In this document: positions 3,112 to 62,832 of the stretch, piece after piece
Layout: each line of letters begins with the position of its first letter
Numbering within the stretch: position 1 is the first letter of the stretch
DNA from: an uncultured virus (IMG/VR IMGVR_UViG_3300029305_009042)
Lineage: Duplodnaviria > Heunggongvirae > Uroviricota > Caudoviricetes
Reading direction: 5' to 3' (one strand)
IMG/VR virus record: IMGVR_UViG_3300029305_009042
Length of the DNA stretch: 64,000 nt
Notes under the pieces: model-generated
Seen by the model: the letters and a program-made list of their open reading frames with translations, nothing else
Databases searched by the model: none
What the model was told of the DNA's origin: nothing
Position numbers and translations under genes: made by a program

Positions 3112-3175
3112 AAAAACCTCCTTTTATTAATAACTCCTCTCTATGTTATGTAAAAACCGCCTGTCTGCAAGAGAT

Positions 3176-3204
3176 AAAAAAAGACCCGACAGGAATCGGG
3201 TCTT
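3176..3204 (-). terminator. Rho-independent terminator
   Basis: AAGACCCGA/TCGGGTCTT hairpin plus T-run, just downstream of the ORF ending at 3209. Confidence 0.7.
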
Positions 3205-3208
3205 AAAT

Positions 3209-4288
3209 CTACCGCTTAGCCGCCGGAGGCTTGACATTTCCCCGCACAGGCTCCCACTGTTTGCCACCAAGACTAACATTATCCGAGTACCGGGTCGGTG
3301 TCCCTATATTATAAAAATTGTCGTCGTCAGCCTGATCTGCCCTGCGCCTTCGTGTTCCATAGTCGTACGCGGTTCCGTCCCAACGCTCAATCTTCTTGCC
3401 GTCGTCTTCTTTATAAAACGAGTCCATATCGCGATCACCCGGGCCTGACCACACGGCACCAGTATTGAGAGGAGAAGGCATAATAAAGCCACGCGGACAC
3501 CACTTAAGCAGCGAGAGCGCTGTCTGCTCCGCTCCATCGCTTATAGCCCGCGGTGTTGTGGGTGCCACCCGTACCCCGTGATGCTTCGAATACCGCTCTA
3601 TAACTCCCAACGCATACGGCAGCTCATCCGGTGTAGTACGCAGCACAAACTCGTGGGTACCGTGGATACCTTCACCTGTCCATCCGCCGCCCGAAGGAAA
3701 CGTCCGATCCAGATAAGCTCTCTCCGAACGCGGTACAGGATACAAGCCGGTCTGCGGAGTGCCGTGATACCAGCGCGGCCGTGTCGGATCCAGTTTCTTA
3801 TCCTCCGCCCACAGCTTCCGATAATACTCCCGCTGTGCCCTCTCTGCTGCAGCCCGCCACGCCTCTTCTGCCTGCTGTGTCCCCTCCACTAAAGAAGCAG
3901 GATCCCGTAGATACCTGTTCTGCGCCTCCGTCTCCTTTGTTATAAGCGCCGCAAACTTGCGGCCCGGACCTGTAACAGATCCAGGAACCTGACGCACAGG
4001 CGGAATGTACACCCTTTTCGGAGCCGGACCGCCCTGCGGACTGCGCGGGACCGGTACGGGTCCGATATTTCGCATGGAAGGCGGGACCCATCCCGGCGGA
4101 GGACCCGCCGCCGTCGGTCTGGCGTTCTGCCGCGCCAAAACATCCAGAGTGCTCATCCTCGGAGCCGGCACTGCCGCCGGATTCTTCACAGGACCCGCTG
4201 CCCGCTGTGCAGGACCCGGAGCAGGACCTGCTTCTTTCAGCATCCGCTCCGCCTGCGCGGCCTTATACAATAAATGAAAATTGATCAT
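3209..4288 (-). CDS. Hypothetical Pro/Ala-rich protein
   Basis: Long ORF; likely start MINFHLLY directly after the nrdD stop. Confidence 0.6.
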   Translation of the reverse strand: MINFHLLYKAAQAERMLKEAGPAPGPAQRAAGPVKNPAAVPAPRMSTLDVLARQNARPTAAGPPPGWVPPSMRNIGPVPVPRSPQGGPAPKRVYIPPVRQVPGSVTGPGRKFAALITKETEAQNRYLRDPASLVEGTQQAEEAWRAAAERAQREYYRKLWAEDKKLDPTRPRWYHGTPQTGLYPVPRSERAYLDRTFPSGGGWTGEGIHGTHEFVLRTTPDELPYALGVIERYSKHHGVRVAPTTPRAISDGAEQTALSLLKWCPRGFIMPSPLNTGAVWSGPGDRDMDSFYKEDDGKKIERWDGTAYDYGTRRRRADQADDDNFYNIGTPTRYSDNVSLGGKQWEPVRGNVKPPAAKR

Positions 4289-4296
4289 TGAATACC

Positions 4297-5940
4297 TCAG
4301 GTATCGTAAGGACACGTCTCGTGATCACCCGGGATGTAGCCGTGCACGGGACAAATACTGAATGTCGGCGTCAGGGAGAAATACGGCATACGGAAGTGCT
4401 CAAAGACCTTGCGGACCAGATTGCCCACTGTCTCCGGATCCTCGACCTGCTCGCCTATATAGGCATGAAAGACCGTTCCGCCGGTATAGGCGCACTGGAG
4501 TTCATCCTGATGCCGCAATGCCTCAAACAAGTCATCCGTGTAGCCGACCGGAAGCTGAGAGGAATTCGTGTAGTACGGCACCTCCGTTCCCGATGTGTAC
4601 ATTTCCGGATACCGGTCTCTGTCTTCCTTCGCAAGACGATACGAAGTTCCCTCGCCCGGGACACCTTCCAGATTATACAGGTGCCCTGTTTTTTCCTGAA
4701 ATTCCTGGAGGCGTTCCCGGATCATTTCCAGGACCTCCAGTGCAAAAGCGCGTCCTTCTTCTGTCTCGATCCCCTTTCCCAGGAAGTTCATGCACATCTC
4801 GTGCATCCCGATCGTGCCGATGGTATGGAAGTGATTATCCAGCGTACCAAGGTAGATCTTGGAATAAGGCATCAGCCCGTTCTCGAAGTTCTTCGACACT
4901 TCCCCGCGCTTAAGTTCCAGAGCCTGCATGGCACTGTCCAGCAGGGATCCCAGCCGTGCCCTGAAGTCCTCCTTATCCTTCGCGAGATACCCGATCCGCG
5001 GCAGGTTCAGCGTCACTACGCCAATGCTTCCTGTCTTGTCGCCGGAGCCGAACAGTCCGCCTCCCTTATGGCGAAGATCCTTGAGGGAAAGCTGAAGACG
5101 GCAGCACATGCTGCGCACTTCACTGGGGTCCCGGTCGGAACTGATGAAATTCTGGAAATACGGCAGCCCGTACTTGCCCGTAGCTAAAAATAAAAGCCGG
5201 GCATTCTCATCCTTCCAGTCAAAATCAGGCGTCATGCTGTACGTCGGGATGGGGAAGGAAAAGATGCGCCCGTCGGCGTCCCCTTCAAGCATCACTTCCA
5301 GAAAAGCGCGGTTGATCATCGCCATCTCTTCCGGGAAATCCCCATACGTCCACTCGTCGTGAGGTTCCCCGCCAATAATGACCGGCGTGTCCTTCAGGTC
5401 CTTCGGACAGTTCCAGTCCAGCGTTACGTTGGTGAAACTCGCCTGCCCAAGACGCATTCCGGTGTTAAGCATGAACACGAACCGCTGAATATCCTGCCGG
5501 ACCTGCTCATACGTCAGGTTGTCCGCACGGACGAACGGAGCCAGAAAGGTATCGAAGGAGTTGATCGCCTGCGCTCCCGCCCACTCACCCTGCAATGTGA
5601 TCAGGAAGTTCATCAGCTGGGCAAGTATGGAATCCAGATGCTTCGCAGGCGCACTCCTCAAGCGTCCCGGTCCGCCCTCAAAACCCTTCAGGAGAATATC
5701 CATGAACGACCAGCCCGCACAGTAGGGAACAATGCCGTTGGAAAGGTCGTGGATGTGCATACTGCCGTCCCGATGCAGGTCCGCTATCTCTTTCGGATAT
5801 ACATTCTCCAGGGTATGCTCCGCGATCGCCGCCCCGGCAACGTGGCTGATCAGACTCTGATAACAGTAATTGGAATTGGCATTCTCCTGAATGCGCCAGT
5901 CTCTCTTTCCGAGATACTCTTCTACTCTGTCTTTGGACAT
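4297..5940 (-). CDS. nrdD: Class III (anaerobic) ribonucleoside-triphosphate reductase, without ATP cone or C-terminal glycyl-radical motif
   Basis: HIHDLS, YCAGWS, GEWAGAQA, SMCCRLQL, GSIGVVTLNLPR, PGEGTSYRLA, YTGGTVFH and SLTPTFSICPVHGY motifs. Confidence 0.93.
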   Translation of the reverse strand: MSKDRVEEYLGKRDWRIQENANSNYCYQSLISHVAGAAIAEHTLENVYPKEIADLHRDGSMHIHDLSNGIVPYCAGWSFMDILLKGFEGGPGRLRSAPAKHLDSILAQLMNFLITLQGEWAGAQAINSFDTFLAPFVRADNLTYEQVRQDIQRFVFMLNTGMRLGQASFTNVTLDWNCPKDLKDTPVIIGGEPHDEWTYGDFPEEMAMINRAFLEVMLEGDADGRIFSFPIPTYSMTPDFDWKDENARLLFLATGKYGLPYFQNFISSDRDPSEVRSMCCRLQLSLKDLRHKGGGLFGSGDKTGSIGVVTLNLPRIGYLAKDKEDFRARLGSLLDSAMQALELKRGEVSKNFENGLMPYSKIYLGTLDNHFHTIGTIGMHEMCMNFLGKGIETEEGRAFALEVLEMIRERLQEFQEKTGHLYNLEGVPGEGTSYRLAKEDRDRYPEMYTSGTEVPYYTNSSQLPVGYTDDLFEALRHQDELQCAYTGGTVFHAYIGEQVEDPETVGNLVRKVFEHFRMPYFSLTPTFSICPVHGYIPGDHETCPYDT

Positions 5941-7082
5941 GCTTTCTCCTGATTATGGTAAAGGGCCATTCCTTCGTTATGTATATTAATAGCGGCATTG
6001 ATGTCCCGGTCGTGCTTTCTGCCGCACTGCGGGCAGGTCCACTCCCTGTCGCTTAATGTCAGCTCCGTATTCTTAAACCCGCAGCAGGAACAGAGTTTCG
6101 AAGACGGGAACATCCTGTCTATCTGTATGATGGTCTTTCCCGCGGCTTCCGCAAGGTACGTCAGCTTCTGAATAAAGCTGTACAGAGCATATTCGCCGAT
6201 CTTCCTGCCGAAACTGCGGCTCATCCCCTGAAGGTTCAGCGTCTCGAAACAGATTATATCATACTTCTCCAAAAGACGGTTACTCAGCTCCCACTGAAAA
6301 TGCTCCCGCTGATGCCGGATCTTGCGGTGAAGTCTCGCTATTTTAAGCCTCATTGCCTCCCGCTTATTAGATCTCCGCTCCTTTCCGGCAAACTGCTTCT
6401 GGAGCTTCGCCAGCTCCTTGAGCGACTCCCTGAAATACTGCGGCGCCTCAAAGGAAGAACCATCACTGCCTGTCAGGAAAGTCTTGATCCCGAAGTCAAA
6501 ACCGACGGAACGCCCATAGTTTGGCATCTGCTCCGTCCGTGTCTCGTCTACCGTCAGGGATACCCAGAAATCACCGCAGGCGTCCCGTGTGACTGTCATC
6601 GTCTTCACCTGTCCTGTCCACTGCTGATTACGGAAGTAGCGATACCTTGTCTTTCCTACCCGGATCTGATCGTCAGGAAGTACAGCCGCGCCTTTGCCCG
6701 GCTGAAAAAAGAGCGTGCCGTACTCGCGAACACGCTGGAACTTCGGAGGCGACGCTCTGCGCTTCTGCTTCAGGTTTCTGAAAAACTGATTGTAGGAAAG
6801 ACGGATGCGCTTGTGAATGTTACACAGGGTGTCGCGAGGTATCGCGTCATACTTCCGAATATTCCCGTTCCCCCTCGCCTTCGCGCGTTTCCGGGTTTCC
6901 GTCAAATAATAAGACAGCGCGTACTGCTTATGGTCCACAAAAATGTTCCTGCCGGTCCTGCGGTAATAAAGCCGGCAGATCCTGATACAGCGGTTATAGT
7001 ACTTTCCGCACAAATACATCATATCCGACAGCTGCCTCCGCTCCTTCGCCTTGGTATAGAGCTTGAATCGATAACCGCGCAT
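5922..7082 (-). CDS. tnpB: TnpB-family RNA-guided endonuclease (IS200/IS605 OrfB-like), CRISPR-associated
   Basis: N-terminal YRFKLY; RuvC-I GFDFG, RuvC-II CFETL, zinc finger CSCC/CPQC and RuvC-III DRDINAAINI with D-E-D intact; RBS (AGGAGA) before MRGYRF gives 386 aa. Confidence 0.93.
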   Translation of the reverse strand: MRGYRFKLYTKAKERRQLSDMMYLCGKYYNRCIRICRLYYRRTGRNIFVDHKQYALSYYLTETRKRAKARGNGNIRKYDAIPRDTLCNIHKRIRLSYNQFFRNLKQKRRASPPKFQRVREYGTLFFQPGKGAAVLPDDQIRVGKTRYRYFRNQQWTGQVKTMTVTRDACGDFWVSLTVDETRTEQMPNYGRSVGFDFGIKTFLTGSDGSSFEAPQYFRESLKELAKLQKQFAGKERRSNKREAMRLKIARLHRKIRHQREHFQWELSNRLLEKYDIICFETLNLQGMSRSFGRKIGEYALYSFIQKLTYLAEAAGKTIIQIDRMFPSSKLCSCCGFKNTELTLSDREWTCPQCGRKHDRDINAAINIHNEGMALYHNQEKACPKTE

Positions 7083-7886: not shown

Positions 7887-9533
7887 ATGCCGGTCGGTAT
7901 TTCTCATATTCAGTACGGCGACCACTATCCGCTTGTGGATCCGTCGCCGGATATTCAGTTCCTCATCGCCGACATGACCGTCAGTCATGAAGATCCGCGC
8001 TTTGAGTATGACCTTCCCCTGCGGATAGCCCGCATCACGCCCAAAGGACATCTCCGGCTGGAAACCTGCAGCGGACAGCCGGTTCTGGACTCCGAAGAAG
8101 CGGAGATCCTTCCCTTCGGCGCCTACACGCTCTATACCTGGACTTCCGCTACGGTTCAGGTCAAGATGGTTATTAATAATCAGCGGAATTTCCCGGACGT
8201 TCTCCTCCCGGAACACGCCGTTCTGGACCTGCGAGCCGTTTACTGCGTCCCGCCGAGGATCCGCACGGTCAATGGACATTCCGGCAGGATAGAGATCGCT
8301 GCCGGAACCAATATCCAGCTCGGAAGCACTCCCAGAGAAGACTTCCGCAGCGAGAATCAGCTCACACTGGATGCTGTACCCGGTGCCGGAACAGGAAAAG
8401 TCACGGTCCCCTGTGAAGAGGTCGAAAAAAAGTTCCTTCTGCGCAGCATCAACGGAGTAAAGCCCAATGCAGACGGAGCTGTCTTCCTGCCTACTGTCAA
8501 CGGACAGACGTTAGCGGTCGGATGCGGGCATCTTCAGCTCGCAAACACCAATGAACCCTGCTGTACCTGCGAAGACATGACGGCTTTCGCGGAATACCTC
8601 AATAAGGTAGCCGACGCCTACCGTGAGATAGGCGGAAAAGCACGCTGGCTGCGGGAACAGCACGATAAACTCGTAAAACTGTGGCAGAGTATCCCCGATT
8701 GTACCGGCACGGCGGCTGCCAGCGTCATTGGACTGGCGCAAAGCTGTCCCCTGATCGAAGTCCGGGCGGCCATCACCAACCTGCACTCTCAGGCAGCCTC
8801 TTTCATCAAGATAAACAGTCATGCGGAGATACTGGAAGGAGAAGGAAGCCTGAAACTCGTCCGGCAGATCATCTCCAACTACCAGTTTGAGGGAAATCAG
8901 GTACCGCAGTGGGTCACGCACTATGACCCGGAGCAGAAAAAGCTGGTCCGGAGGCTGAAAGCAGTCTTCGCGTCCGAAGGAACCAAGACATTCAGCGACG
9001 TTTCTGCCGACAGCGAAGTCTACCTGCTCTGGCAGGGGCACTATGACGAGGAAACAAACGAAAGAGAAGCCGTCACGGAGGCAAATCGCACCCTGACGGA
9101 CGAAAACGGGAACCTGATCGCGGAAGGAGACACCAAAACACCGGACCTTTTCGAGAAATGGTTCAAAAACAGCCCGTTCATGGAGTGGTACTGCGTCCCG
9201 GCAGGCGAGACCGTCTACTGGCACGGCATCTACCAGATCATTCTCGACGATAAAGAGGAAACATTCTCGGAAAACTACCGTATCCAGTTCACGCTGGACT
9301 CCGGACACATCGATTTCTTCGCTCACGGCTCGGAAATACCGCTGGAATACCGGCAGCTGGGCGGTCCGTACCTCTCCGGTACCCAGAAAACTACCGTAAA
9401 CCTGAACTGTGTCATCGATGAAGACTCCATCATGGACCCGGCACCCCGAAAAGAAGACGCAGAGACCATCCGAAAGAAGATCTTCGAGATCAAGCAGCGC
9501 TACTGGCCCTGCAAAGGAGAAGAAGAGGCATAA
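7887..9533 (+). CDS. Putative virion structural (tail/baseplate-associated) protein
   Basis: RBS AAGGAGG; SINGVKPNADGAV and PCCTC motifs resemble large-phage tail-region proteins (inference). Confidence 0.5.
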   Translation: MPVGISHIQYGDHYPLVDPSPDIQFLIADMTVSHEDPRFEYDLPLRIARITPKGHLRLETCSGQPVLDSEEAEILPFGAYTLYTWTSATVQVKMVINNQRNFPDVLLPEHAVLDLRAVYCVPPRIRTVNGHSGRIEIAAGTNIQLGSTPREDFRSENQLTLDAVPGAGTGKVTVPCEEVEKKFLLRSINGVKPNADGAVFLPTVNGQTLAVGCGHLQLANTNEPCCTCEDMTAFAEYLNKVADAYREIGGKARWLREQHDKLVKLWQSIPDCTGTAAASVIGLAQSCPLIEVRAAITNLHSQAASFIKINSHAEILEGEGSLKLVRQIISNYQFEGNQVPQWVTHYDPEQKKLVRRLKAVFASEGTKTFSDVSADSEVYLLWQGHYDEETNEREAVTEANRTLTDENGNLIAEGDTKTPDLFEKWFKNSPFMEWYCVPAGETVYWHGIYQIILDDKEETFSENYRIQFTLDSGHIDFFAHGSEIPLEYRQLGGPYLSGTQKTTVNLNCVIDEDSIMDPAPRKEDAETIRKKIFEIKQRYWPCKGEEEA

Positions 9534-11830: not shown

Positions 11831-12903
11831 TCGTCCAGAAGCAGTCCTTTCCGGTTAAAGAACTCCATCATCGCCCGAAGCAGCGGCTTGCAGCCCAAAA
11901 GCTGGAGGTGATGGATCCTCCTGTTATTAATATCGCGCTTCAGCCATCCGGACTCCCGCAGAGAACGAAGCCTTCGGCTGACCGCAAACTCCGACCAGTC
12001 CGGCAATATCTTCTTGACATCCGCCGGACGTATCCCTCCTGGAACACACAGAGCCAATACCAGTATGGGAGCGCAGTCTCCCGGAGCCAGTTTCCGCAGA
12101 AGCGGAGCCAGATTCTTCCGCGCGACTTCCTGCTGTGTGCCCAGAGACACCAGTCCCCGGATATTCTGGACCAGCCCGTCCGCCATGTACCTCATCCACG
12201 CGGATATGTCTCCCCTGTCCGCCAAAGTCAGATGATGATAGTACGCTTCCCGGTCGTAACTGAAGATCACCGACGGATGAAGCGCCCAGCCGTTGACCGT
12301 CGTCAGCCCCGCCCGCGCAAGCATGGCGTAAGTCAGGAGCCTGGCTGTCCTGCCGTTCCCGTTCTCAAACGGATGAATGACCGTAAAAGCATGGTGCGCC
12401 CAAAGCGTCTTCAACAGATAAACCAGCGGCTCGCAGGGAGCGTTGATCTCCTGTACCAGCTGATGGATCCTGTCCGGTACATCCCCCGCAGAAGGCGGAC
12501 ACACATCCGCGCCCTGAATACGAACTTCCGCGCTTCTGAAACAGCCCGGATTCCTGTCCCCTTCCTCCTGAAGTCCCTCCGTCACCCGCCGATGAAGCTC
12601 CCGAATGTAGCCTACGTCCAGCCTTACATCCGCCGTATCCTGTACGAACCGGATCGCGGAGAGAATATTCGTGATCTGCTTGTGCAGGTCCGTATCCTCT
12701 AGGGTCCTGTCCCTCAAAAGATAATCTGTGATGGTCGTATGATTTCCCTCTATCCGGGCGGAAGCGACACACTCCGCCATAAAAAACATCTCATGCAGCT
12801 GCGCCGCGATCGGATCCAGATCCTGAACCTCCGACCGATAAGACAACAGTTCCGACACCCGCCGAAACAACTCAAAATCCTGAAATTCCTTTACATCAAA
12901 CAT
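11815..12903 (-). CDS. Fic-family protein with probable C-terminal wHTH
   Basis: HPFENGNGRTARLL Fic motif; SARIEGN inhibitory-helix-like motif. Confidence 0.9.
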   Translation of the reverse strand: MFDVKEFQDFELFRRVSELLSYRSEVQDLDPIAAQLHEMFFMAECVASARIEGNHTTITDYLLRDRTLEDTDLHKQITNILSAIRFVQDTADVRLDVGYIRELHRRVTEGLQEEGDRNPGCFRSAEVRIQGADVCPPSAGDVPDRIHQLVQEINAPCEPLVYLLKTLWAHHAFTVIHPFENGNGRTARLLTYAMLARAGLTTVNGWALHPSVIFSYDREAYYHHLTLADRGDISAWMRYMADGLVQNIRGLVSLGTQQEVARKNLAPLLRKLAPGDCAPILVLALCVPGGIRPADVKKILPDWSEFAVSRRLRSLRESGWLKRDINNRRIHHLQLLGCKPLLRAMMEFFNRKGLLLDDQVMR

Positions 12904-14045: not shown

Positions 14046-14145
14046 GCGGAGTTAAAACACTTAACTCCTTTTACTCACGATATATGCCCCCAAAACCCGC
14101 ATTTTTAAGCAAAAAAAGGGAGCAGACCAAAGCCCGCTCCCTCCT
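14046..14145. repeat. Intergenic module B, copy 1 (terminator + promoter-like motif + palindrome)
   Basis: Near-identical to 15117-15216; contains GGAGTTAA-AACAC-TTAACTCC and a GGGAGC/GCTCCC hairpin. Confidence 0.85.
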
Positions 14146-15226: not shown

Positions 15227-15664
15227 CTAATCCAAACCCTTTTTTCTTCGCAGTGCCAGCAGCCGCTGCAACGCCTCCGGAGGCAGATTCAGTTCTTTAT
15301 ACTGGACCGCCCGCAGTTCTTCCTGTGCTTCCAGTCCGGACATGTTGGTATTCCGGTATCTGCCGCGCGTATCGAACATCGGCAGGTAGGCTTCTCCTGC
15401 CATTTTGCAGAATTCCGCGGCATGTTCTTCCGGGATGCCAAACTCTTTCACCGCTTTTGCCGGCGGACAGCCTCTCAGTCTTCTGGCTAACCCAGCCGTG
15501 AAGACCGGAACGCCGTCATGGAACCCGTCCCGGTCACAGGCGACCCATTCCTTTTTATTAATATCAAACCTGCGGAAGTTTTCAGCCCCAGTTGTCGTGG
15601 TACTCGCTTTCCCAGTCTTCGTCATCATATCCTTCCTCGTCTTCTCCGTCCAAAAGCTGTTCAT
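15227..15664 (-). CDS. Hypothetical protein (start uncertain)
   Basis: ORF in the minus-strand operon. Confidence 0.5.
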   Translation of the reverse strand: MNSFWTEKTRKDMMTKTGKASTTTTGAENFRRFDINKKEWVACDRDGFHDGVPVFTAGLARRLRGCPPAKAVKEFGIPEEHAAEFCKMAGEAYLPMFDTRGRYRNTNMSGLEAQEELRAVQYKELNLPPEALQRLLALRRKKGLD

Positions 15665-17660: not shown

Positions 17661-18497
17661 CTACCAGATGTACGAATAAGGTGACGGGATGACGCCCCAT
17701 GCCATCGAAGCATTCAACTCCGACTTTTTGGAGTCCACAAACTGTCTGTAAGTGTCCCAGTGATACTGCGCCGCCTTGAGATAGTTCATCTCCTTGTCCT
17801 TGTCGGCAACACTGAGTCCTCCAGCCTGATACTGAAGCGAGTTCTTCCTGTAGTCCTCGGCAGCGATCATGAAGAGCTGTCCCAAGGTGCCCTCGATGAG
17901 ATGATGCCGATAGGGAAAGTTATGCGTAGAAGCAGGTCTGCCAAGATCAGGAGGCGTCTCGTTCCAGTATCTTAAGGCACGCTCCATAGCCGCCATGATC
18001 TCTGAATCCTCAAAGGCTCTGTCCTCCAGAAGAAGACTCTCATGACGGGATGTGTCCCTGAGGTATAGTCTTATCTCCTGTAAGGAAGGCGGACCTTTGG
18101 GAGAATCCGTGGAAACATAAAGACGAAAGTCATTGGTGAGTATGGGCGTGTCGTTCCGATACATGGTGACTGTGCCGCGATAGCCGCCCGGACGAAAGTT
18201 GGCAGGTACTGATATTAATAACTGTCCCTTGCTGTAGTCCTTCACAGTAACAGGAAGGGTACAGGGTTTACCACCCACCACCATCTCGCGAACATGCGCC
18301 TTAAATACGCTGCCGTCGTCTTCCAGTTCATAAGGTACCCCCTCCTGATTCTGAAACTCAAATAAAAGCTCCGAGGCTGCACTGACCGTGAACGCTCGAA
18401 GTCTGGTGCGAAGTACAGTGTCGTCCTGAAAAGTACGGTCAGGATGAACCTCATTAGTGACCGGAACCGGATGCGGCTCCTTCCTGTGTATAGGCAT
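17661..18497 (-). CDS. Putative head-tail connector/neck protein
   Basis: EIRLYLRD, YWNETPP and LQYQAGGLSVADK resemble neck proteins of large phages (inference). Confidence 0.5.
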   Translation of the reverse strand: MPIHRKEPHPVPVTNEVHPDRTFQDDTVLRTRLRAFTVSAASELLFEFQNQEGVPYELEDDGSVFKAHVREMVVGGKPCTLPVTVKDYSKGQLLISVPANFRPGGYRGTVTMYRNDTPILTNDFRLYVSTDSPKGPPSLQEIRLYLRDTSRHESLLLEDRAFEDSEIMAAMERALRYWNETPPDLGRPASTHNFPYRHHLIEGTLGQLFMIAAEDYRKNSLQYQAGGLSVADKDKEMNYLKAAQYHWDTYRQFVDSKKSELNASMAWGVIPSPYSYIW

Positions 18498-20824: not shown

Positions 20825-21578
20825 GATTCTTCTCCATCAGATCCAACTTCTCACACAACCGTGTCAATTCCCTGTCTTCCCGCCATGCCGAAACAGCATC
20901 CAGCCTCCATAACAGGAAGCCCCAGAACAGAACCGATACCAGACAGGCGTTCCCAAACGCGCGAAACGCGGTCATGAACGGACTGGATGCCCTGCCCTGC
21001 CATGCCTGCTTCCAGATCCCGACCCGGGATTCCTGCGCCTCAAACTGTAAACGCCGCTGCATGTCCGACGCACCTGCTCCCGCACGCGCCAGTCCCTTCC
21101 TGAGAAGGTGCTCCGCCAGATCCGTTCCGTCATAGGTACAGATCAGATACCCTTCCGGCACCCGCAGCCTGTCAAGCGTCACCGGCTTGTTATTAATAAC
21201 CGTTTCCAGCTCCTCGACCATCTCCCGATACTGCTTATCCCGTCGAGCCAGAAACTCGATCCCGGCCGGCATGACCGTATCGCCTGTTTCCAGCTTCAGA
21301 CCTTTCTGCGTGATCCGGCGTACCATCACCGCCTTCCCATCCAGCTCCCCGTCCTCCGGGAGCTCATGGTTCTTGTACTGAAGACTGCACAAGCCGAAGA
21401 TCATCACCCCTGCCGTCATGACAAACGCCAGCCATCCGACAGCACCATTCTTAATGTTCACAAACATGACGGCGAACAACATACAGAACAGCCCCAGAGA
21501 CAGCAGTATCATCCACAGATACGGCAGCTGCGCGGACAGAACAGTCCTTAAAGTTTCCGTGAGCCAGTTAATGATCAT
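20787..21578 (-). CDS. Membrane-bound thermonuclease (SNase-like) domain protein
   Basis: DLAEHLLRKGLAR and EAQESRVGIW are SNase C-terminal motifs; three hydrophobic segments. Confidence 0.7.
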   Translation of the reverse strand: MIINWLTETLRTVLSAQLPYLWMILLSLGLFCMLFAVMFVNIKNGAVGWLAFVMTAGVMIFGLCSLQYKNHELPEDGELDGKAVMVRRITQKGLKLETGDTVMPAGIEFLARRDKQYREMVEELETVINNKPVTLDRLRVPEGYLICTYDGTDLAEHLLRKGLARAGAGASDMQRRLQFEAQESRVGIWKQAWQGRASSPFMTAFRAFGNACLVSVLFWGFLLWRLDAVSAWREDRELTRLCEKLDLMEKNHDEESKAGCGNI

Positions 21579-26851: not shown

Positions 26852-26913
26852 ATTTTCTCCTTTTATTAATAAAAGCCGGAGAGGGGCCGTACGCCCCTCA
26901 CCCGCAGATTCTA

Positions 26914-32741: not shown

Positions 32742-33398
32742 TTATTTATTAATAACAGGATACGAGTAACTGTCCTTAAACAGCTGCTCCCGTTCATCCC
32801 GTGTCAGAACATTCGGCATCGTCACCTCTTCCAGACTGAAACAGCCGTCAAAGGTGTTCAACGGAATACTTTCCAAACGCGGAGGCAGGATCACATCCCG
32901 CAGCCGAGAACAGTTCTGGAACATACGCTCCCCCATCCGGGCAGCCATACTGCTTCCAAGAGAAACATCCTCCAGCTTTTCGCAATCCTGAAAAACACCG
33001 TCTCCGAGCCTGAGCAGCGGACCTGGATTATGGAACTTCTCCAGCCAGTAGTTTCCCTTGAACGCACCCTTCCCTAGGGCACCTACACCTCCTCCGAAAG
33101 TCACTTTTTCAACATTCGTATTTTCAAAGGCAAACGCTCCGATCGAATAAACGGTCCTGTCGAAACAAAGCTCCTCCAGAGTCGAACCGTAAAAGGCACA
33201 CTCCTCAATAAATTCGACCCCCTCCTTGAAATGAACCCTTGGGCAGGTACAGCCCGCAAACGCCGATTCTCCAATGCGTTTCACTTCCGAGTGAAACACG
33301 ATCTCCTGGATGTCGCGCCATCCTGCAAACTGTTTGTCCCGGATCGTATCACAGTAAACATTCAGAACACTGTCTTTTAATACCAAATGCTGTTTCAT
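32742..33398 (-). CDS. BspA-type LRR protein
   Basis: VKRIGESAFAGC and VILPPRLESIPLNTFDGC repeats. Confidence 0.85.
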   Translation of the reverse strand: MKQHLVLKDSVLNVYCDTIRDKQFAGWRDIQEIVFHSEVKRIGESAFAGCTCPRVHFKEGVEFIEECAFYGSTLEELCFDRTVYSIGAFAFENTNVEKVTFGGGVGALGKGAFKGNYWLEKFHNPGPLLRLGDGVFQDCEKLEDVSLGSSMAARMGERMFQNCSRLRDVILPPRLESIPLNTFDGCFSLEEVTMPNVLTRDEREQLFKDSYSYPVINK

Positions 33399-40761: not shown

Positions 40762-41402
40762 ACTCTCCCTTTCAGAAACATCATTCCATCGTAGTACGCC
40801 GTTTCGCAGCGATCCTTCTGCATCGCCTTCGGTCTGACGAACGGATTGGACGGGTCATTGCGCCACAGACTGCAAAAGTCCGAAGCGTAGATCCCGATCG
40901 ACGCGATATTAATAACACCCGGAGGCATGTGTCCCTGCGCCATCCGAACATAATCCGGGATCTGCATAACAGGACATTCCGCCGCGAACATTACCCGCTG
41001 TTTCTTCACATCTACGGACCCGTAACTGATCAGATAGTTCCGAAGCTCCGGCCATACTGACTTTGGACAGAAGTAAAGTGTTCGAGACAAGTCCAGTATC
41101 TCCTTCTTGTCTCCTGCCGCGCCTCCGCAGGAAACTGTCAATTCCCGAAGCGGAGGCGTAATGTCAAAAATAGGAAAAGGCGAGATACTGACCTTAATGC
41201 GGGTCGATTTATCCAATCGAGCCGCGAAATCCCGAACCATGTCCCGGTCATGCGTCGTGTTCCAGTAAAGAAGCGCCGGTGTAAACGCCTGATACTCCTT
41301 CGCCGTCAGACCTGTCCAGGTATATTTCGTATTCCCAAGATCAGCAAATGTTTTCTCTTCCCGCATTTTCGTAACACTCCATAGTCTCAAACCGTTTTCC
41401 AA
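40758..41402 (-). CDS. Hypothetical protein
   Basis: ORF in operon. Confidence 0.5.
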   Translation of the reverse strand: MENGLRLWSVTKMREEKTFADLGNTKYTWTGLTAKEYQAFTPALLYWNTTHDRDMVRDFAARLDKSTRIKVSISPFPIFDITPPLRELTVSCGGAAGDKKEILDLSRTLYFCPKSVWPELRNYLISYGSVDVKKQRVMFAAECPVMQIPDYVRMAQGHMPPGVINIASIGIYASDFCSLWRNDPSNPFVRPKAMQKDRCETAYYDGMMFLKGRV

Positions 41403-45312: not shown

Positions 45313-45324
45313 GGTTATTAATAA

Positions 45325-45397
45325 TCCTTCCGACTGGATTTGAACCAGTGACACCCGCGGTGTAAACGCGGTACTCTATCCGCTGAGCTACAGAAGG
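45325..45397 (-). tRNA. tRNA-Val(UAC)
   Basis: Cloverleaf; CCGCG-TTTACAC-CGCGG; GGTTCAAATCC. Confidence 0.85.
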
Positions 45398-45681: not shown

Positions 45682-45686
45682 TGTTC

Positions 45687-46115: not shown

Positions 46116-46704
46116 AACCGTTAAACATAAACTCAGACACGTGGTCAAAACAGCAGAAATCCTTCCCATCGTAATCAACAACAGCAGGACAGTTCGGGTC
46201 CTCCAGATCCCAATCCGTAAACGTGGCGTGACACCACGCACAGCGGTACGTCCCTTCCGGAAGCTCCTCATCGAAATCTTTCTCCTGTTCCTCAAGATCT
46301 TCCTCCGCCTCCTCATCCGACGAGACATGATCATCCTCCGCCTCCGTCACAGAAGCCGGCGCACCCAGGTCCTGCACCGTCAGCGCTTCCTCTTCCGGCG
46401 CAGAAAGGATGTAGTTCGCGATCAGCTCCTTCTCCGTCAGGATCGACAGTCCCACCAGACTGAACGTTTCCCCTTCTCCGTTATTAATAACGGCAAATCT
46501 CAGCGCGTCCAGATCCCTCTCACGCCGAAGAGGCACGTAAACATTCTCGTCAAGCATCCCGAAAACGCCTGTCACGCCGTTACGCTCCTGATAGTCCCGG
46601 ATCCTGTCCGCTACATTCTTTTCAGGAACCCCCAGCCACATTCCGCCGGGTGTGGTATAGCTATAAAGAATCATCTTCTTCCTTTTCCTTTCTGTTAAAA
46701 TCAC
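46105..46704 (-). CDS. Hypothetical protein with C-terminal Zn finger
   Basis: CAWC...FCCFDH; acidic linker. Confidence 0.55.
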   Translation of the reverse strand: MILTERKRKKMILYSYTTPGGMWLGVPEKNVADRIRDYQERNGVTGVFGMLDENVYVPLRRERDLDALRFAVINNGEGETFSLVGLSILTEKELIANYILSAPEEEALTVQDLGAPASVTEAEDDHVSSDEEAEEDLEEQEKDFDEELPEGTYRCAWCHATFTDWDLEDPNCPAVVDYDGKDFCCFDHVSEFMFNGYAP

Positions 46705-50171: not shown

Positions 50172-51413
50172 TTAAAACGGAATGGCATTATTGTCAACCC
50201 TTTCCATCGCGGAATCCATCACCGAGGACACCGTACTCGGAGCCGGCCCGACCGGAGAACGGCGCAGACGCGGTGCCGGAGCCTCTTCCTGGATCGGCTC
50301 GAAATCATCCGCGAGGTCCTCAAACCCGTTATTAATAACAGGCTGCTGGATCGGCATCGGAGTACGCTGGACCGGAGCCTGCTGATAGGAAGCCGTCGGG
50401 TAGACCTGCTCCTGAACCAGTTTCGGTTCCGATTCCGCGCGGCGCTTCACATCATCCGTCAGCATGGACTCATACTCCGTGCCCCGGAAGGCATACAGCA
50501 TGGGCTGACCCGGAGCAAAGCGGTTCAGGATCCCCATCTGTTCCTCGTGGGACATATAGTGGATCGTGTCCTTCCACGGACGGATCTGCGTCGCGTACCA
50601 GTCCTGCAGTTCCTGTGACACTGCCGCGGACATGCCGTCGTAATAGCAATGAAGGATCGGATGACGTTTCGGCAAGGCCAGATTGTAGCCGAAACTGCCT
50701 TGCTGGGACATGATCTCTTCCGGGGAGATCCCGTCCGGCGTCCGCTTGCTCTTATTCCAGATCACGAGGAAATGCCCGTCCGCCGGATCCGTCAGGTCCA
50801 TGATCTCTTCGACAGGACCGCGCCAGCTCTGGTTCATCTTGTTACTGATCAGCTCAAACAGAGAGCGTTTGATCATCAGAATGTCCAAACCATAGAGGTT
50901 GTCCAGACTGACTTCCTTGTCATTGCGATAGTATGTAATCACCGGTGAAAATGTCACCATCGCAGGATCGGGGAGCAGACGATCTTTGTTGTTCTTGTCT
51001 GTCATTTTCATGTAGTAGCCAATGGCTCTGTCGCCCTCGGCGTACTTCTTCATGGCGTTATACAGACGAACATACGGACCATTCCGATAAGTCAGCGTCT
51101 CCTCTTCCGGAGATGTATTGAGAATGAATGATACTTTTTCCTCAAAAGCGAACAGCGCCGCCCGTGCCTGCTGGACCCATGTTCCAAAATCGTAACCGTC
51201 TTCCGTCTGCACCGTGCAGGTACTGAACGAACGACAGCCGTCAGATTCATTCAGACCGTCCAGAAGACGGAACACGGACGGATTATTACTGTTCCAGCCG
51301 GGACGCACGAGCCTTCCGCTTTTCAGCAGGAAGGAATTGCTCTGATCGTTTGAATCCATGCTAGTGACCGTTGATCTTTTCGTACTGTAAACGAATTGTC
51401 TACTCATTTTCAT
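50172..51413 (-). CDS. Putative single-stranded DNA-binding protein
   Basis: Lies between polymerase and RecA; acidic tail ending AIPF like the SSB C-terminal DIPF. Confidence 0.5.
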   Translation of the reverse strand: MKMSRQFVYSTKRSTVTSMDSNDQSNSFLLKSGRLVRPGWNSNNPSVFRLLDGLNESDGCRSFSTCTVQTEDGYDFGTWVQQARAALFAFEEKVSFILNTSPEEETLTYRNGPYVRLYNAMKKYAEGDRAIGYYMKMTDKNNKDRLLPDPAMVTFSPVITYYRNDKEVSLDNLYGLDILMIKRSLFELISNKMNQSWRGPVEEIMDLTDPADGHFLVIWNKSKRTPDGISPEEIMSQQGSFGYNLALPKRHPILHCYYDGMSAAVSQELQDWYATQIRPWKDTIHYMSHEEQMGILNRFAPGQPMLYAFRGTEYESMLTDDVKRRAESEPKLVQEQVYPTASYQQAPVQRTPMPIQQPVINNGFEDLADDFEPIQEEAPAPRLRRSPVGPAPSTVSSVMDSAMERVDNNAIPF

Positions 51414-55167: not shown

Positions 55168-55224
55168 GTTATTAATAGCTCCATAAATAAAGGCACCCGC
55201 CGAAACAGGTGCCTGTCAACGGAA

Positions 55225-59176: not shown

Positions 59177-60434
59177 CGGACAGATCCGGAAAATCTACAC
59201 CCGTAGACCAGACATCCGTCGCGATCACACGCCGAAGAGTCCCGTTTTTGAACTCTTCCTTCATGCGGTTCCGATCCTTTGCCTTCAGCGGAACATAGTC
59301 CTCCGGAAGCAGCCCCTGCCTTTGATACCGGTACAGATCATCCGGTTTCAGATTGCCGTGTACCAGCGTAAATTCCGGCAGGTACTGTTTCAGATAGAGC
59401 GCATGCTCAATCGTAGAGACCAGGATCAGGACCTTCTCGTCTTCCGCACACTTCTCATTCACGTAACTGGAGATCAGTGCATTCCGATACCCGTTTCGCC
59501 AGATAAGATGCCGGTTTCGGGAAACCGTCTCGCTCCACATTCCGGAGGTCCCGTCCGCGTCGAAACAATGAAGCCACTCGACTGTGATCGGGACCACCAG
59601 CCCGCCCTGAACTCCTGCCTCATAGTTCATGTTATAAATAACATCCCCGAAGATCCAGTTCAGCGCGGTGTCCGCTCCGTCCGAGCGTCCCTTTGGCGTC
59701 GCTGTAAACCCGTACATCCTTGAGACGGTGTACTTGGTCAGCAGGACATCCATGTACGTTGGAGCCGCAGCCTGATGACACTCATCGAAAATCAGAAACG
59801 CCACATCCTGCGTATCCAGCCGTCCAAGACTGTCCGCGGTAATTACTGTGACCCGGCAATCCCGATCCTTACGCTCACCGCAGAACATTCCGACATCGGG
59901 CGTGACCGATACCAGACGCCGGTAAATCTCATTCAGAACATCCCGGGACCGGGTGCAGATATGAAACTTCGCCGTCGGGTACATCTGGATCAGTACACTT
60001 AACAGAAACGTCTTTCCAAAGCCGACCGGAGCGCACAATACTCCATGGCGTCCCTGAATGAACGCTTCGAGGGCTTCCAGCTGCCCCGTTCGGAAAGCGT
60101 ACCGATCCAGCACGGACCGATCCGGTTCCAGATGAATATAATTCTGGTCCGGCGGCGTCAGGTCCTGACACTGGAGGGTGTGCCCTTCCTTCTGAAGAAA
60201 ACGCACGACCGCCGGACACATGCCGTAGGTCGTGATCAGAGTGTCCTTTGTCGTATCCACCATCATGTAGACCGGTGTCGCGACATACTGCCACTTGCGC
60301 CCGCTCCGGATCCTCTCCGTCTTTGTGTACTGGAATGTATTGTGTAAAGAAGAACGGAGCCCCGGCTCCAATGCCGTGCCCCGCTCGCCTCGGATCTCAA
60401 TGGAATTTCCATTCCTCAGGATCTGCACATTCAT
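58962..60434 (-). CDS. SF2 DEAD/DEAH (UvsW-like) helicase
   Basis: APVGFGKT, DECH, TAT, TGVDFP and QGGGRASR motifs. Confidence 0.9.
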   Translation of the reverse strand: MNVQILRNGNSIEIRGERGTALEPGLRSSLHNTFQYTKTERIRSGRKWQYVATPVYMMVDTTKDTLITTYGMCPAVVRFLQKEGHTLQCQDLTPPDQNYIHLEPDRSVLDRYAFRTGQLEALEAFIQGRHGVLCAPVGFGKTFLLSVLIQMYPTAKFHICTRSRDVLNEIYRRLVSVTPDVGMFCGERKDRDCRVTVITADSLGRLDTQDVAFLIFDECHQAAAPTYMDVLLTKYTVSRMYGFTATPKGRSDGADTALNWIFGDVIYNMNYEAGVQGGLVVPITVEWLHCFDADGTSGMWSETVSRNRHLIWRNGYRNALISSYVNEKCAEDEKVLILVSTIEHALYLKQYLPEFTLVHGNLKPDDLYRYQRQGLLPEDYVPLKAKDRNRMKEEFKNGTLRRVIATDVWSTGVDFPDLSVVINASARASSISAMQGGGRASRVADGKSSARVVDIVDRFDGTNSPFYRNACSRKQTYEEAGWTQSGWKRL

Positions 60435-60733
60435 GATTTCAGGTCCTCGATAATTTCTTCCAGCTTCTTTGCCGAACAAAGCCCCTGAAATTCCGCTTGA
60501 ATTTCCTTGTCTTTCCATATCTGCGTGTACGGCAGGCGGTCGATCGTGAACTCTGAAGACAACTCCGGCGAATCTTCCAGACGTACCTGCGTAAAGCTCA
60601 CTTCCGGATACTTTTTCTTAAGCTGCGCCTGTACCATCCCAGCGGCACGGCAGGCAGCACAGTTGTCGGCGCCGAACTCCACGATGTGGATCTCTCCGTC
60701 GCTTACCAGCTTATACAGTTCTTCTCTTGTCAT
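60431..60733 (-). CDS. Thioredoxin-family protein
   Basis: FGADNCAAC and cis-Pro RLP. Confidence 0.8.
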   Translation of the reverse strand: MTREELYKLVSDGEIHIVEFGADNCAACRAAGMVQAQLKKKYPEVSFTQVRLEDSPELSSEFTIDRLPYTQIWKDKEIQAEFQGLCSAKKLEEIIEDLKS

Positions 60734-62832
60734 TTCTTTTCTCCTAAGTCAACTAACGAATTGAATAATGGGCGCAGCATCTCATCATGCGTCACGATGA
60801 AGATCTGCAGATCCGAAAACACCGGGGATTCCTTCAGACGCTTCAGCACATCCGTCAACGCGCCTCGGTTTCTGGAATCCAGAAAAGTCGTAGGCTCGTC
60901 CAGCATCACGAAACCGCCGGTGTCATCCTGCGCAAATACGGAATGAAGCGCAAGCCGGAACGCGATCGACAACAGCATCTTCTCCCCTCCGGAGAGTCTG
61001 GCTGCCAGCTGCACCGTTCCGTTATCGAAGTGACAGAAAAAGTCTCCGCCCTCCACGAACTCTACCGTAAACGGTGCGTTAAATTCGGTCAGGTATATCC
61101 GGATCTTCTCTGTCAGCTTCCTGTAGATGTCGCAGGCAACTTTCGCCGGAAACGCCTTGATGTGGAACATATCCGCCAATGCGTGCAGGTCCCGACGAAG
61201 CTCCGGATCCGTCTCCTTCAGCTGATTCCGGATCCTGAGAACATCCTGCGAGATCCCTTCCAGCTCCAGTGCGATCCCGTCATACTGAACACGCTCCAGA
61301 AGCTGGTCCTTCACCTGCTGGATCTGTTTATTAATAACAGCCTGCTCCTGTTCCAGTGCAGCCGTATCCTGAACCTCCATCTCAGACCACACTGGATTCT
61401 CCTGAATCGCCTGAAGATTACGGTTCAGCTCTTCGAGCCGTGTCTGAAGACGTTCCTGCTCCTGCCGCCACGCCTGAGACGCGGCTTCGTGACCGGACAC
61501 TTTCTTCAGGGACTCTCTAAGGTTATGGACTTCAAGATCCAGATCTGTCAAGTCCTTCTCCAGCGCAGGGAATACCTCTGCCGGTACTCCCATGTAGCCG
61601 AGACTGGCAAGCGGCTGCTCCAATGCCTCAAGATGCGAAGCATACTGCGAGTTCCGGCGGGCCTGTTTCTCGATCTCCTGTTTCCGGAGTGTCATATACG
61701 ATTTCAGCTCCGAGAGCTTCTGCCGCGCCTCCGTAAAGTGTGCCTGCGCCTTTCGCAGGTCATCCTCAGTCCATGATGTTTTCGCCCCGCACGTGGGACA
61801 GCGTCCCTCTGTGCCGCAGCCGGTGATCAGATCAAAGAGCTTTTGTGCCTCCTTCGTCTCCGCAACCAGATCGGTATACTGTGCCTGAAGCCGATCCAGC
61901 TCGTCCGGATCAATCTCTTCCGGAGGAGCGAGTCTCAGAAAGGCAGAAGCCTGTTTATACACTGCGCTGCGCTCCGCCTGCCGCTGAAGGGAAAGCGTTA
62001 ATTGAGTCTCCAGATCCGCCCGGGAGCGGGTCTCCTCGCAGACAGGAGCCGGCTCCCGCAGCCGTTCCTGTATCATCTGCAGCTCTGCCTCCCCTTTTTC
62101 CTGCTGTGCAGACAGATACGCCCGCAGCTGCACAGAACCAAGTCTTCTGGCCGTCTCCTGTCCGGATTCCGTCAGAGACTTCAGCATATCCTCCAGCGTC
62201 TGTTTTGGCGGCAGGGAAGCGAAACTTTGAAGGAATGCTTCTTTCTGCGCCCGCTGATCCGACAAAAGAACCAGCTGCGCTTCCAGTTCCGCCGCCTTCT
62301 GATCTACGGTCTGCAGGATCTCCATGATCTTCTTTCGCTCCCGTTCAAAAAACTGAAGCGAAAAGACCCGCTGCAGTATCTGATTCCGTTTTGCGGAAGT
62401 CTCGCGGAAGAGCGACACCAGATCTTCCTGCGGGGTACAGAAGACCTGACACGCCACGTCCGCCGAGATGTGGATCATCTCCGCGATCAAGGCCCGGGCA
62501 TCCGCAGAAGTTTTCGTGATGACCTCCCAGATACCGTCGTTCAGACGACTCACGGAAACAGTCCCGTTCTGAATGGCGCGGGTGATCTTATAATTTTCCG
62601 CGCCGTTATCCGTGCAGATCTCCAGCGCGACAGATCCGGTCTTTTCCCCGGTGCTGATATACTCCAGCTTGTTTGTGGGAGTATACCCTGTCAGAGCATA
62701 CACCAGTGCCCGGATGATATTACTCTTTCCGGATCCGTTAGGACCCAGGATCCCGACCAGTCCCGCGTCAAAATGCACGGTGAGTTCCCGGTGCTGGCAC
62801 CAATTGACCAACTGTAATCCTTTTATTTTCAT
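60730..62832 (-). CDS. SbcC/Rad50 (gp46-like) SMC ATPase
   Basis: GPNGSGKS, coiled coils, CPTC hook, LSGGE, LDEPT and VTH motifs. Confidence 0.93.
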   Translation of the reverse strand: MKIKGLQLVNWCQHRELTVHFDAGLVGILGPNGSGKSNIIRALVYALTGYTPTNKLEYISTGEKTGSVALEICTDNGAENYKITRAIQNGTVSVSRLNDGIWEVITKTSADARALIAEMIHISADVACQVFCTPQEDLVSLFRETSAKRNQILQRVFSLQFFERERKKIMEILQTVDQKAAELEAQLVLLSDQRAQKEAFLQSFASLPPKQTLEDMLKSLTESGQETARRLGSVQLRAYLSAQQEKGEAELQMIQERLREPAPVCEETRSRADLETQLTLSLQRQAERSAVYKQASAFLRLAPPEEIDPDELDRLQAQYTDLVAETKEAQKLFDLITGCGTEGRCPTCGAKTSWTEDDLRKAQAHFTEARQKLSELKSYMTLRKQEIEKQARRNSQYASHLEALEQPLASLGYMGVPAEVFPALEKDLTDLDLEVHNLRESLKKVSGHEAASQAWRQEQERLQTRLEELNRNLQAIQENPVWSEMEVQDTAALEQEQAVINKQIQQVKDQLLERVQYDGIALELEGISQDVLRIRNQLKETDPELRRDLHALADMFHIKAFPAKVACDIYRKLTEKIRIYLTEFNAPFTVEFVEGGDFFCHFDNGTVQLAARLSGGEKMLLSIAFRLALHSVFAQDDTGGFVMLDEPTTFLDSRNRGALTDVLKRLKESPVFSDLQIFIVTHDEMLRPLFNSLVDLGEKK

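Follow-up and report, generated by a model that had tools for sequence, protein, structure and literature searches.

Dispersed dyad repeats are known in a few phages. The closest described case is that of the Cluster O mycobacteriophages (Corndog and relatives), which carry more than 30 copies of a 17-bp dyad repeat, 5'-TGTTCGGNNNCCGAACA (Cresawn et al. 2015, PMC4351075). According to the available text of that paper, the repeats are intergenic as well as coding, with about one-third clearly in genes, have no orientation to transcription and lie mostly away from promoters; the phages are not obviously temperate, and the authors expect the repeats to be bound by a dimeric protein whose role lies elsewhere than in transcription initiation, the function being not known (PMC4351075). 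Here we analyze a 64,000-nucleotide stretch of DNA (the window) from the uncultured Caudoviricetes virus IMGVR_UViG_3300029305_009042, a member of a gut lineage in which an AT-only palindrome centered on ATTAAT, TTATTAATAA, recurs every few kilobases. The window is the minus strand of bases 22845-86844 (G000:C1) of a 187,654-bp virus record, hereafter G0, that is estimated to be 94% complete. We propose, with moderate confidence and from sequence comparison, that the sites sharing the 8-bp core TATTAATA (optimum GTTATTAATAAC) are under selection and together make up a genome-wide lattice of symmetric sites at which a putative homodimeric DNA-binding protein would dock. In the literature on dispersed or over-represented palindromes in phage genomes, we found no paper describing this lattice in this phage family.

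As far as the available text on Cluster O allows a comparison, both systems have more than 30 copies of one dyad word, and the 35 copies in G0 (13 intergenic, 22 coding) are likewise symmetric, at positions -2/-1 and +1/+2. The Cluster O word, however, is GC-rich with a 7-3-7 arrangement around a spacer, whereas GTTATTAATAAC is AT-rich and has no spacer; the phages and host are unrelated as well. Sites in Cluster O become denser toward one genome end, in contrast to the even spacing found here, and that text does not report a word switch or the nearby replacement of lost sites, both of which are seen here. The present case is that of an AT-only word in GC-rich genomes of 154-204 kb, at one site per 4-5 kb.

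The stoperators of Cluster A phages, bound by the L5 gp71 repressor, are similar in that tens of copies are scattered genome-wide in short gaps and genes and one phage protein acts through them across the genome and not promoter by promoter, but by the available description they are asymmetric and oriented with transcription (PMC4351075), unlike the symmetric G0 sites. They also serve prophage silencing. A tyrosine integrase (PF00589) was found in none of five lattice-bearing relatives (14 of 14 in the control), and the one integrase of G0, accompanied by an excisionase-like gene, sits in a 13.7-kb stretch free of sites; a repressor was not found. Silencing of the stoperator type is therefore unlikely, given the symmetric sites and the missing integrase in the relatives.

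A palindrome repeated across the genome

G0 has a GC content of 53%, and the window stays at 51-57% throughout. TTATTAATAA occurs nine times in the window (starts at 3124, 8170, 21190, 26863, 32746, 45315, 46481, 50329 and 61328), whereas 100 dinucleotide shuffles yielded none (mean 0.00, maximum 0). For the core TATTAATA, 15 copies were counted, and the shuffles gave 0.13 on average and never more than 1. The original prediction had described these copies and six core-only variants at a frequency far above chance; its coordinates were all exact on recount, the frequency was borne out by the shuffles, and its two 16-bp palindromes at 26860-26875 and 46478-46493 were confirmed from the flanks. 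The whole of G0 holds 35 copies of TATTAATA, 19 of TTATTAATAA and seven of the perfect 12-mer GTTATTAATAAC, the palindrome that is the consensus and common extended form of the sites. TATTAATA is the top over-represented 8-mer of the genome (35 copies versus 0.50 expected under a second-order Markov model). No other dispersed word rivals it: all other highly repeated 10- to 12-mers derive from the many internal repeats of one 5011-amino-acid (aa) open reading frame (genome 154186-169221), and (TA)n runs are few and local.

A simple codon-bias scheme called 204 genes in G0, covering 90.5% of the sequence. Ten of the 15 window sites lie in called genes and five are intergenic, and in the whole genome the division is 22 to 13, so that intergenic copies are about 4-fold enriched relative to the ~9% of non-coding DNA. 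Genic sites occur at relative positions from 0.10 to 0.98, one of them 8.9 kb before the end of a 15-kb gene. That most copies lie in genes, as originally predicted, therefore holds for the window; the accompanying V/D-I-N-N/K reading holds for most of them, but A and I variants and one L-L-I reading also occur. The window sites are as follows.

3123..3134, GTTATTAATAAA, intergenic, 11 nucleotides (nt) before an AAGGAGG ribosome-binding site and the start of a minus-strand gene
5982..5993, GCTATTAATATA, core only, at the 3' end of a TnpB-like gene (5922-7082, minus), A-I-N-I
8169..8180, ATTATTAATAAC, in a 548-aa gene on the window plus strand, V-I-N-N on the gene strand
11923..11934, GATATTAATAAC, core only, in a Fic-domain gene, D-I-N-N
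15554..15565, GATATTAATAAA, core only, intergenic
18211..18222, GTTATTAATATC, core only, in a 278-aa gene, L-L-I frame
21189..21200, perfect 12-mer GTTATTAATAAC, in a 263-aa gene with a weak SNase-like match, V-I-N-N
26860..26875, TTTATTAATAAA widened to the 16-bp palindrome CTTTTATTAATAAAAG, intergenic, after a GC hairpin and 10 nt before a gene start
32745..32756, GTTATTAATAAA, in the last codons of a BspA-type leucine-rich repeat (LRR) gene, V-I-N-K-stop
40905..40916, GTTATTAATATC, core only, in a 202-aa gene, V-I-N-I
45314..45325, ATTATTAATAAC, in the spacer between tRNA-Val (45324-45398) and tRNA-Ile (45237-45312)
46478..46493, perfect 12-mer within the 16-bp palindrome CCGTTATTAATAACGG, in a 189-aa gene, V-I-N-N
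50328..50339, perfect 12-mer GTTATTAATAAC, in a 378-aa gene, V-I-N-N
55168..55179, GCTATTAATAAC, core only, intergenic, just downstream of a sigma-like gene (55225-55761) and immediately ahead of the next start codon
61327..61338, GTTATTAATAAA, in an SbcC/Rad50-like gene (60730-62832), V-I-N-K

When four runs, all of them assembled contigs that reported no molecule ends, were compared with the window, 40 of 1343 rows of differences were covered, all at positions 3033-5338. In these rows the site at 3123-3134 showed no difference, although the neighboring positions 3091, 3092 and 3146 differed, a pattern that favors no reading over another.

The word is selected as DNA

The original prediction had proposed a k-mer test against a codon-preserving shuffle. 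Carried out genome-wide as 300 synonymous-codon shuffles within genes, it left 14.5 ± 1.2 copies of TATTAATA (maximum 18) of the 35 real ones, so the codon-shuffled null was not matched. Since the 13 intergenic copies stay untouched by construction, the coding copies all but vanish. Eighteen of the 22 coding sites are read as GTT-ATT-AAT-AAC (V/D/A/S-I-N-N/K/I) and four as TTA-TTA-ATA (L-L-I); the third frame holds a TAA stop and is used by none. Ile-Asn pairs as such are not enriched in G0 (99 versus 99.0 expected), but 26 of the 99 are encoded by ATT-AAT, with 15.2 expected, and the tetrapeptide VINN is present eight times against 0.22 expected. The DNA word is what is selected, overriding the choice of codon and amino acid, and the proteins bear the cost.

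These data bear directly on the view that the pattern is a by-product of coding (a favored V-I-N-N peptide), of composition or of a dispersed repeat, without any function at the DNA level. The single frame and similar peptides of 18 of the 22 coding copies would be expected from such a by-product. The 13 intergenic copies would not, nor would the loss of the coding ones on synonymous shuffling or the enrichment of VINN in the absence of any enrichment of Ile-Asn pairs. Moreover, the frame that is avoided is the one with the stop, and the stop-free GATATC word of two relatives (G1 and G2, described below) uses all three frames; nor does any conserved flank extend past 12 bp. On the intergenic copies, codon shuffles, frame use and bare flanks, we reject the by-product and repeat-element reading as extremely improbable.

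The tRNA spacer that holds one of the sites belongs to a five-tRNA cluster (window 45237-45770, minus) consisting of Leu-taa, Thr-tgt, one odd call with a two-base anticodon, Val-tac and Ile-tat. The four tRNAs with a normal anticodon call read A-ending codons. Two of them, Leu-UAA and Ile-UAU, read TTA and ATA, the codons forced by the L-L-I frame of the palindrome.

Sites are symmetric and evenly spaced

The 35 sites were aligned on the local direction of transcription, and their information content was limited to 12 two-fold symmetric positions, with no conserved or directional flank within 20 nt on either side. The flanking bases G at -2 (28/35) and T at -1 (24/35) had symmetric counterparts in A at +1 (26/35) and C at +2 (21/35). 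As nothing is conserved beyond 12 bp, the site does not belong to any longer repeat or mobile element; it is also directionless.

The gaps between sites in G0 average 5225 bp, with a coefficient of variation (CV) of 0.52 compared to 0.97 for random placement (P = 5e-5), and only two gaps are shorter than 2 kb where 10.6 are expected. The fairly even spacing noted originally in the window is thus upheld by spacing statistics on the genome. The longest gap is the site-free stretch of 13.7 kb (genome 170181-183897), which holds the integrase, the excisionase-like gene, a Dam-family methyltransferase, HNH and ATPase genes and the core RNA polymerase gene for beta'C. The absence of sites there fits recently acquired DNA that has yet to gain them.

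Relatives carry a sister word

G0 encodes an RNA polymerase in two chains, a fused beta-beta'N (1461 aa) and a separate beta'C. Close relatives at the DNA level were found neither in a PolA scan of viral contigs nor in a scan of genome contigs for a 73% polymerase homologue, and no GenBank phage matched 12 kb of G0 by megablast. With a profile built from polymerase homologues, 79 IMG/VR phage loci at 32-49% identity were recovered. None of these had TATTAATA above chance, but many had another AT-rich palindrome around GATATC. In two relatives with polymerases 47-49% identical to that of G0, the top 8-mer is the AT-rich palindrome AGATATCT:

G1, complete with terminal repeats, 203,910 bp, 57.7% GC, 42 copies of AGATATCT versus 1.1 expected, spacing 4757 bp, CV 0.56 (P 5e-5)
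G2, 153,669 bp, 60.4% GC, 30 copies of AGATATCT versus 0.7 expected, spacing 5213 bp, CV 0.69 (P 0.02)

The wider word WWWGATATCWWW has 49 sites in G1 and 40 in G2, about one per 3.9 kb. The GATATC word is free of stops in every frame, and all three frames are used (17/6/7 in G1 and 10/3/6 in G2). Coding copies lean to AAAGATATCTAT (K-D-I-Y), whereas intergenic copies in G1 prefer the fully symmetric ATAGATATCTAT (7 of 12) and lack the strand asymmetry; an asymmetry confined to coding copies reflects coding constraint rather than direction. Three further complete relatives (G3, G4 and G5) showed a weaker version, with A/T flanks in all three and GATATC enriched 2.4-2.8-fold in G3 and G5. A tandem array of 15-bp units (GGTACCGAACTGCTG-like) within one G1 gene (115.1-116.7 kb) was the source of the repeated 10-mers of G1.

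G1 and G2 could be aligned over 104 kb at 75.5% identity. Of the 42 AGATATCT cores of G1, 26 fell in aligned blocks, and 19 of these 26 were perfectly conserved, compared to 15.4% of all aligned 8-mer windows. For the wider word, 24 of 31 aligned sites were at a shared position. Furthermore, five of seven sites present only in G1 had a site present only in G2 at a distance of 139-605 bp (permutation mean 0.46, P = 7e-5). Conservation together with nearby replacement indicates that a site is needed per neighborhood and not at a fixed base. The conservation in related phages to which the original prediction looked is therefore found for the sister word; the word of G0 itself could be followed by peptide proxies only.

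Sites and transcription

The original prediction had offered, as an alternative to a protein-binding site, a bidirectional promoter for the phage sigma factor. In its general form, this alternative takes the palindrome as a promoter-type element at which the phage-encoded RNA polymerase initiates, a minimal AT-only site comparable to the T4 late promoter that is bidirectional or given direction by something the sequence does not reveal. The phage does encode a multisubunit RNA polymerase together with two sigma-like proteins, one a sigma factor of 245 aa and the other a 178-aa protein resembling extracytoplasmic function (ECF) sigma factors (Pfam and PHROGs, relaxed Pfam scans):

genome 88657-93042, RNA polymerase/sigma locus outside the window
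genome 175228-177123, RNA polymerase/sigma locus outside the window
genome 123065-123802, RNA polymerase/sigma locus outside the window
window 55225-55761, 178-aa ECF-like sigma-like protein, between the primase and PolA genes

The virion proteome of Salmonella phage Arash, the nearest cultured relative, includes the polymerase and a sigma factor, and the available text of the Arash paper makes no mention of a promoter, motif or palindrome (PMC10585845). In each of G0, G1 and G2, no dispersed motif outranks the palindrome, its intergenic copies are enriched in G0 as described above, several copies follow terminator-like hairpins and precede a start by 10-12 nt, and three sites lie in divergent gaps. 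Nearby replacement of lost sites would also be expected for promoters.

The T4 late promoter TATAAATA, read by gp55, is an 8-bp AT-only word of a large lytic phage; it is directional and lies before late genes in tens of copies and sometimes within upstream genes. TATTAATA is likewise an 8-bp AT-only word and differs from it by one base. The G0 sites, however, are symmetric over 12 bp, are spread evenly across all gene classes and are also found in convergent gaps (1/20), as are the sister sites (2/5 in G1 and 1/7 in G2). The two-fold symmetry and the lack of a directional flank within 20 nt are difficult to reconcile with a promoter in genomes where 232 of 241 genes (96%, G1) or 177 of 189 genes (94%, G2) are on one strand, since a symmetric promoter would result in genome-wide antisense transcription. 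In addition, 22 of the 35 sites are intragenic, some of them mid-gene, and the distance to start codons is not fixed in G1 and G2; gaps to the next start range from 0 to 624 nt. By inspection, the A-N3-T spacing of the sigma-70 -10 element is present in neither palindrome. Three sites are spanned, at a depth of 4-6, by contigs assembled from one metatranscriptome; such contigs cannot show transcript starts.

G0 also owns a separate directional bipartite motif, TTAAAAA-N13-15-GGCATATA (also written G(G)GCATATA). All 12 hits are intergenic, and ten of them are 40-77 nt upstream of a co-oriented gene start. Four are in the window and eight elsewhere in the genome:

2434-2461, minus strand, bipartite motif
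14081-14108, minus strand, bipartite motif
15153-15179, minus strand, bipartite motif
19468-19495, minus strand, bipartite motif

This motif may be the promoter class of one phage sigma factor. It often follows a T-run and is mostly found ahead of accessory genes such as LRR genes. In Arash (OQ632216.1), the top word is the directional TGGTATAAGTA / TACTTATACC (16 copies versus 0.2 expected), which resembles an extended -10 promoter.

With directionless sites, 22 of 35 of them in genes, and a separate promoter-like motif in the same genome, the bidirectional promoter is disfavored, and we regard a promoter role of the palindrome in any form as rather unlikely. Gene-by-gene control of transcription initiation is not favored either.

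Restriction pressure and the choice of word

Several palindromic hexamers are nearly or completely missing from G0. Observed versus expected counts were 0/77 for GATATC, 0/66 for AAGCTT, 0/33 for TTTAAA, 0/16 for GTTAAC, 1/45 for ATGCAT, 1/19 for GGGCCC and 6/70 for GCGCGC. This avoidance is a strong footprint of restriction pressure. ATTAAT, by contrast with its expected count of 12, is the most enriched palindromic hexamer of the genome with 51 copies, 35 of them inside the lattice word. The purging of GATATC suggests that the lattice word was rewritten in G0 under restriction pressure. In two relatives (G008 and G010), ATTAAT was absent, and a reversed control word occurred 21 and 17 times.

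A methylation- or repair-linked palindrome is a further reading of such a hexamer-centered word. The model for it is HIP1 (GCGATCGC) of cyanobacteria, an iterated palindrome that is mostly genic through codon choice, is conserved at orthologous places and has an unsettled function; by analogy, the G0 word would be kept by a methyltransferase or by nicking and repair, or serve as an epigenetic mark, rather than as a docking site. The two systems share an over-represented genic palindrome and lineage-variant words. G0 encodes a D12-class (Dam family) N6-adenine methyltransferase (genome 174448-175200), M.EcoRV belongs to the Dam family, the 6-bp words ATTAAT and GATATC are of classical type II form, and the avoidance of the other palindromes is of the restriction type. 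HIP1, however, is about ten times denser, belongs to cellular genomes and is tied to particular methyltransferases, whereas the sites described here are regularly spaced and no link to a methyltransferase of the Dam/EcoRV type was found in relatives: PF02086 (D12) was found in none of five relatives with the GATATC word (6 of 14 known genomes in the control), among which other methyltransferase families were not searched. The G0 enzyme has no homologue in G1 or G2. Moreover, specificity reaches 12 bp, past a 6-bp methyltransferase word, as 35 of the 51 ATTAAT hexamers have T...A flanks, and a mutational drive explains neither the even spacing nor the nearby replacement of lost sites. We therefore judge a methylation- or repair-based origin very improbable.

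A putative dimeric reader

The 12-bp dyad, the selection that changes amino acids, the lineage-specific word and the conserved density together point to a homodimeric DNA-binding protein. We infer that such a reader acts regionally and is probably phage-encoded. The genome-wide protein-binding site of the original prediction fits the symmetry, selection, spacing and conservation described above; of the functions it listed, the promoter is disfavored, and the data do not separate segregation, packaging and injection from one another.

Several results weigh against this docking-site reading. Sites are ~2.5-fold enriched within 100 nt upstream of starts (29% versus 11%, all three genomes), and four of the 13 intergenic G0 sites are 10-12 nt before a start, which a role in transcription could equally account for. 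No other dispersed upstream motif was found in G1 and G2 that could serve the phage RNA polymerase. No candidate for a dimeric binder came from Pfam and PHROGs scans of G0 or from a relaxed Pfam scan of 20 proteins, nor was a usable result obtained from the Atlas for the basic 141-aa protein encoded next to the sigma gene. The lattice is absent from the cultured relatives Arash (whole genome) and Vibrio phage D69 and so does not extend to the whole of the wider family. The data on conservation and relocation come from the sister word of G1 and G2, not from the word of G0, and two of the peptide proxies used for the latter show limited persistence: the VINN of the 378-aa protein persists in a 97% relative but reads VTNN in a 91% relative, and the DINI of the tail sheath is present at 73% identity but not at 57%.

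Among the other proxies, a 43% relative of the 378-aa protein has AINN ~40 residues upstream, within an insertion. The peptide xIN[NK] is present in 8 of 11 polymerase homologues at 59-61% identity (P0010-P0020), compared to 7 of 100 at 46-49% (P0021-P0120). These peptides give a hint that the ATTAAT word may reach the nearer kin of G0.

Two further searches for a reader, one based on the composition of conserved proteins lacking annotation and one on presence or absence relative to Arash and D69, also gave no candidate; in the latter, most proteins were too diverged to inform. The lack of a phage candidate in the protein scans would be expected if the reader came from the host, for instance as a nucleoid-associated protein or a global regulator, and the phage recruited or titrated it, with the word following the host. 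The change of word with lineage is in line with this idea, as is the origin of G0 from animal gut or faecal samples and of the GATATC-word relatives from other metagenomes. On the other hand, G1 and G2 keep one word across 25% nucleotide divergence, and an AT-only word, very rare by composition in a host of similar GC content, would be odd as the site of a host regulator. We know of no host-factor consensus that matches either the ATTAAT- or the GATATC-centered word. Binding by a host factor is accordingly considered quite improbable.

For a phage-encoded dimeric reader, one functional parallel is the KorB/OB and KorA/OA systems of the IncP-1 plasmid RK2, with palindromic 12-13-bp operators every few kilobases and dimeric readers. 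KorB loads at its own sites and acts at a distance, and RK2 has about a dozen sites that are tied to promoters. The scattered palindromes, and the loading logic that we favor for G0, are similar. The words are unrelated, however, and here 35-50 sites are written into genes, compared to about a dozen. Membership in the ParB/KorB group is rejected: a ParB_N (PF02195) protein was found in none of five records, G0 and four relatives (10 of 14 in the control), and the Pfam scans of G0 gave no ParB match. Chi sites provide a second parallel. The density of one site per 4-5 kb and the rarity of the word in GC-rich DNA fit, but the known Chi words are asymmetric.

From the even spacing and the local replacement, each site would serve its own few kilobases as a loading or anchoring point. 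Under this model, which we favor, a site would serve a neighborhood of ~5 kb, and its presence within the stretch would matter while its exact place would not. Sites would be placed in intergenic gaps where there is room and otherwise in genes, in the stop-free V-I-N-N or L-L-I frames. The bound protein would then act on neighboring DNA, much as KorB and Chi do, and its role could be in chromosome organization, self-marking or the loading of a processive machine.

Genomic context

G0 is a myovirus-like phage, and the runs that hold it are animal gut or faecal metagenomes from 13 studies. Its polymerase fusion is 30% identical to that of Arash over 99% of its length and has more than 600 homologues in metagenomes, some with LAGLIDADG inserts. 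We assign G0 to an Arash-like group with its own RNA polymerase and not to the mycobacteriophages. Further genes encode PolA, primase, a DnaB-like helicase, a UvsX-like recombinase, Mre11- and Rad50-like proteins, NrdD, ThyX and many BspA-type LRR proteins, and there are several accessory islands.

At least ten paralogues of the BspA-type LRR genes (Pfam LRR_5) occupy much of the window between ~14200 and 33400, and reads from other organisms or paralogues pile up on two of the LRR genes (bins 14340-15006 and 22344-23000). The TnpB/Cas12f1-like gene (OrfB_IS605 and TNB domain; window 5922-7082, minus) is directly upstream of nrdD, the anaerobic ribonucleotide reductase gene, and overlaps it by a few codons. 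A thioredoxin gene (window 60431-60733, minus) is situated in the replication module between the SbcC-like and helicase genes, near the family A DNA polymerase, an arrangement reminiscent of T7, which employs thioredoxin as a processivity factor. Outside the window, an 860-aa protein (genome 97239-99821) carries a Hint/LAGLIDADG intein, while its G1 and G2 homologues are intein-free, 485 aa long and 52% identical. Accessory islands at genome 138573-140689 and 170685-172014 contain an EcoRII-C-type endonuclease with a C5 cytosine methyltransferase, and the tyrosine integrase with the excisionase-like helix-turn-helix gene.

Significance of the lattice

An AT-only word in a genome of 53% GC is a mark almost absent from other DNA of similar composition. 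One conjecture built on this, which we consider unlikely, is that the lattice is a phage 'self' code, with a word every 4-5 kb that a phage machine can read in either direction and at which it loads or halts. If so, nucleases, the replisome or the packaging apparatus would tell phage from host DNA without base modification, and lineages would rewrite the whole lattice, the gut lineage having swapped a GATATC-centered for an ATTAAT-centered word under restriction pressure. Such a swap would explain why GATATC has been lost from G0 while its distant relatives build on it.

The feature occurs in a very large and little-studied family of ~190-205-kb phages with their own RNA polymerase, and three observations constrain its mechanism. 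The density is conserved at one site per 4-5 kb, with over-regular spacing, despite a polymerase identity of 47-49%; the word changes completely between lineages, from ATTAAT- to GATATC-centered, at equal density; and a site that is lost has a substitute no more than a few hundred bases away. Taken together, they point to one site per neighborhood that is read symmetrically, with the reader and the word evolving together. If the sites are loading or self-marking points, they would represent a new principle of phage chromosome biology and would also provide a practical marker for these phages and their lineages in metagenomes.

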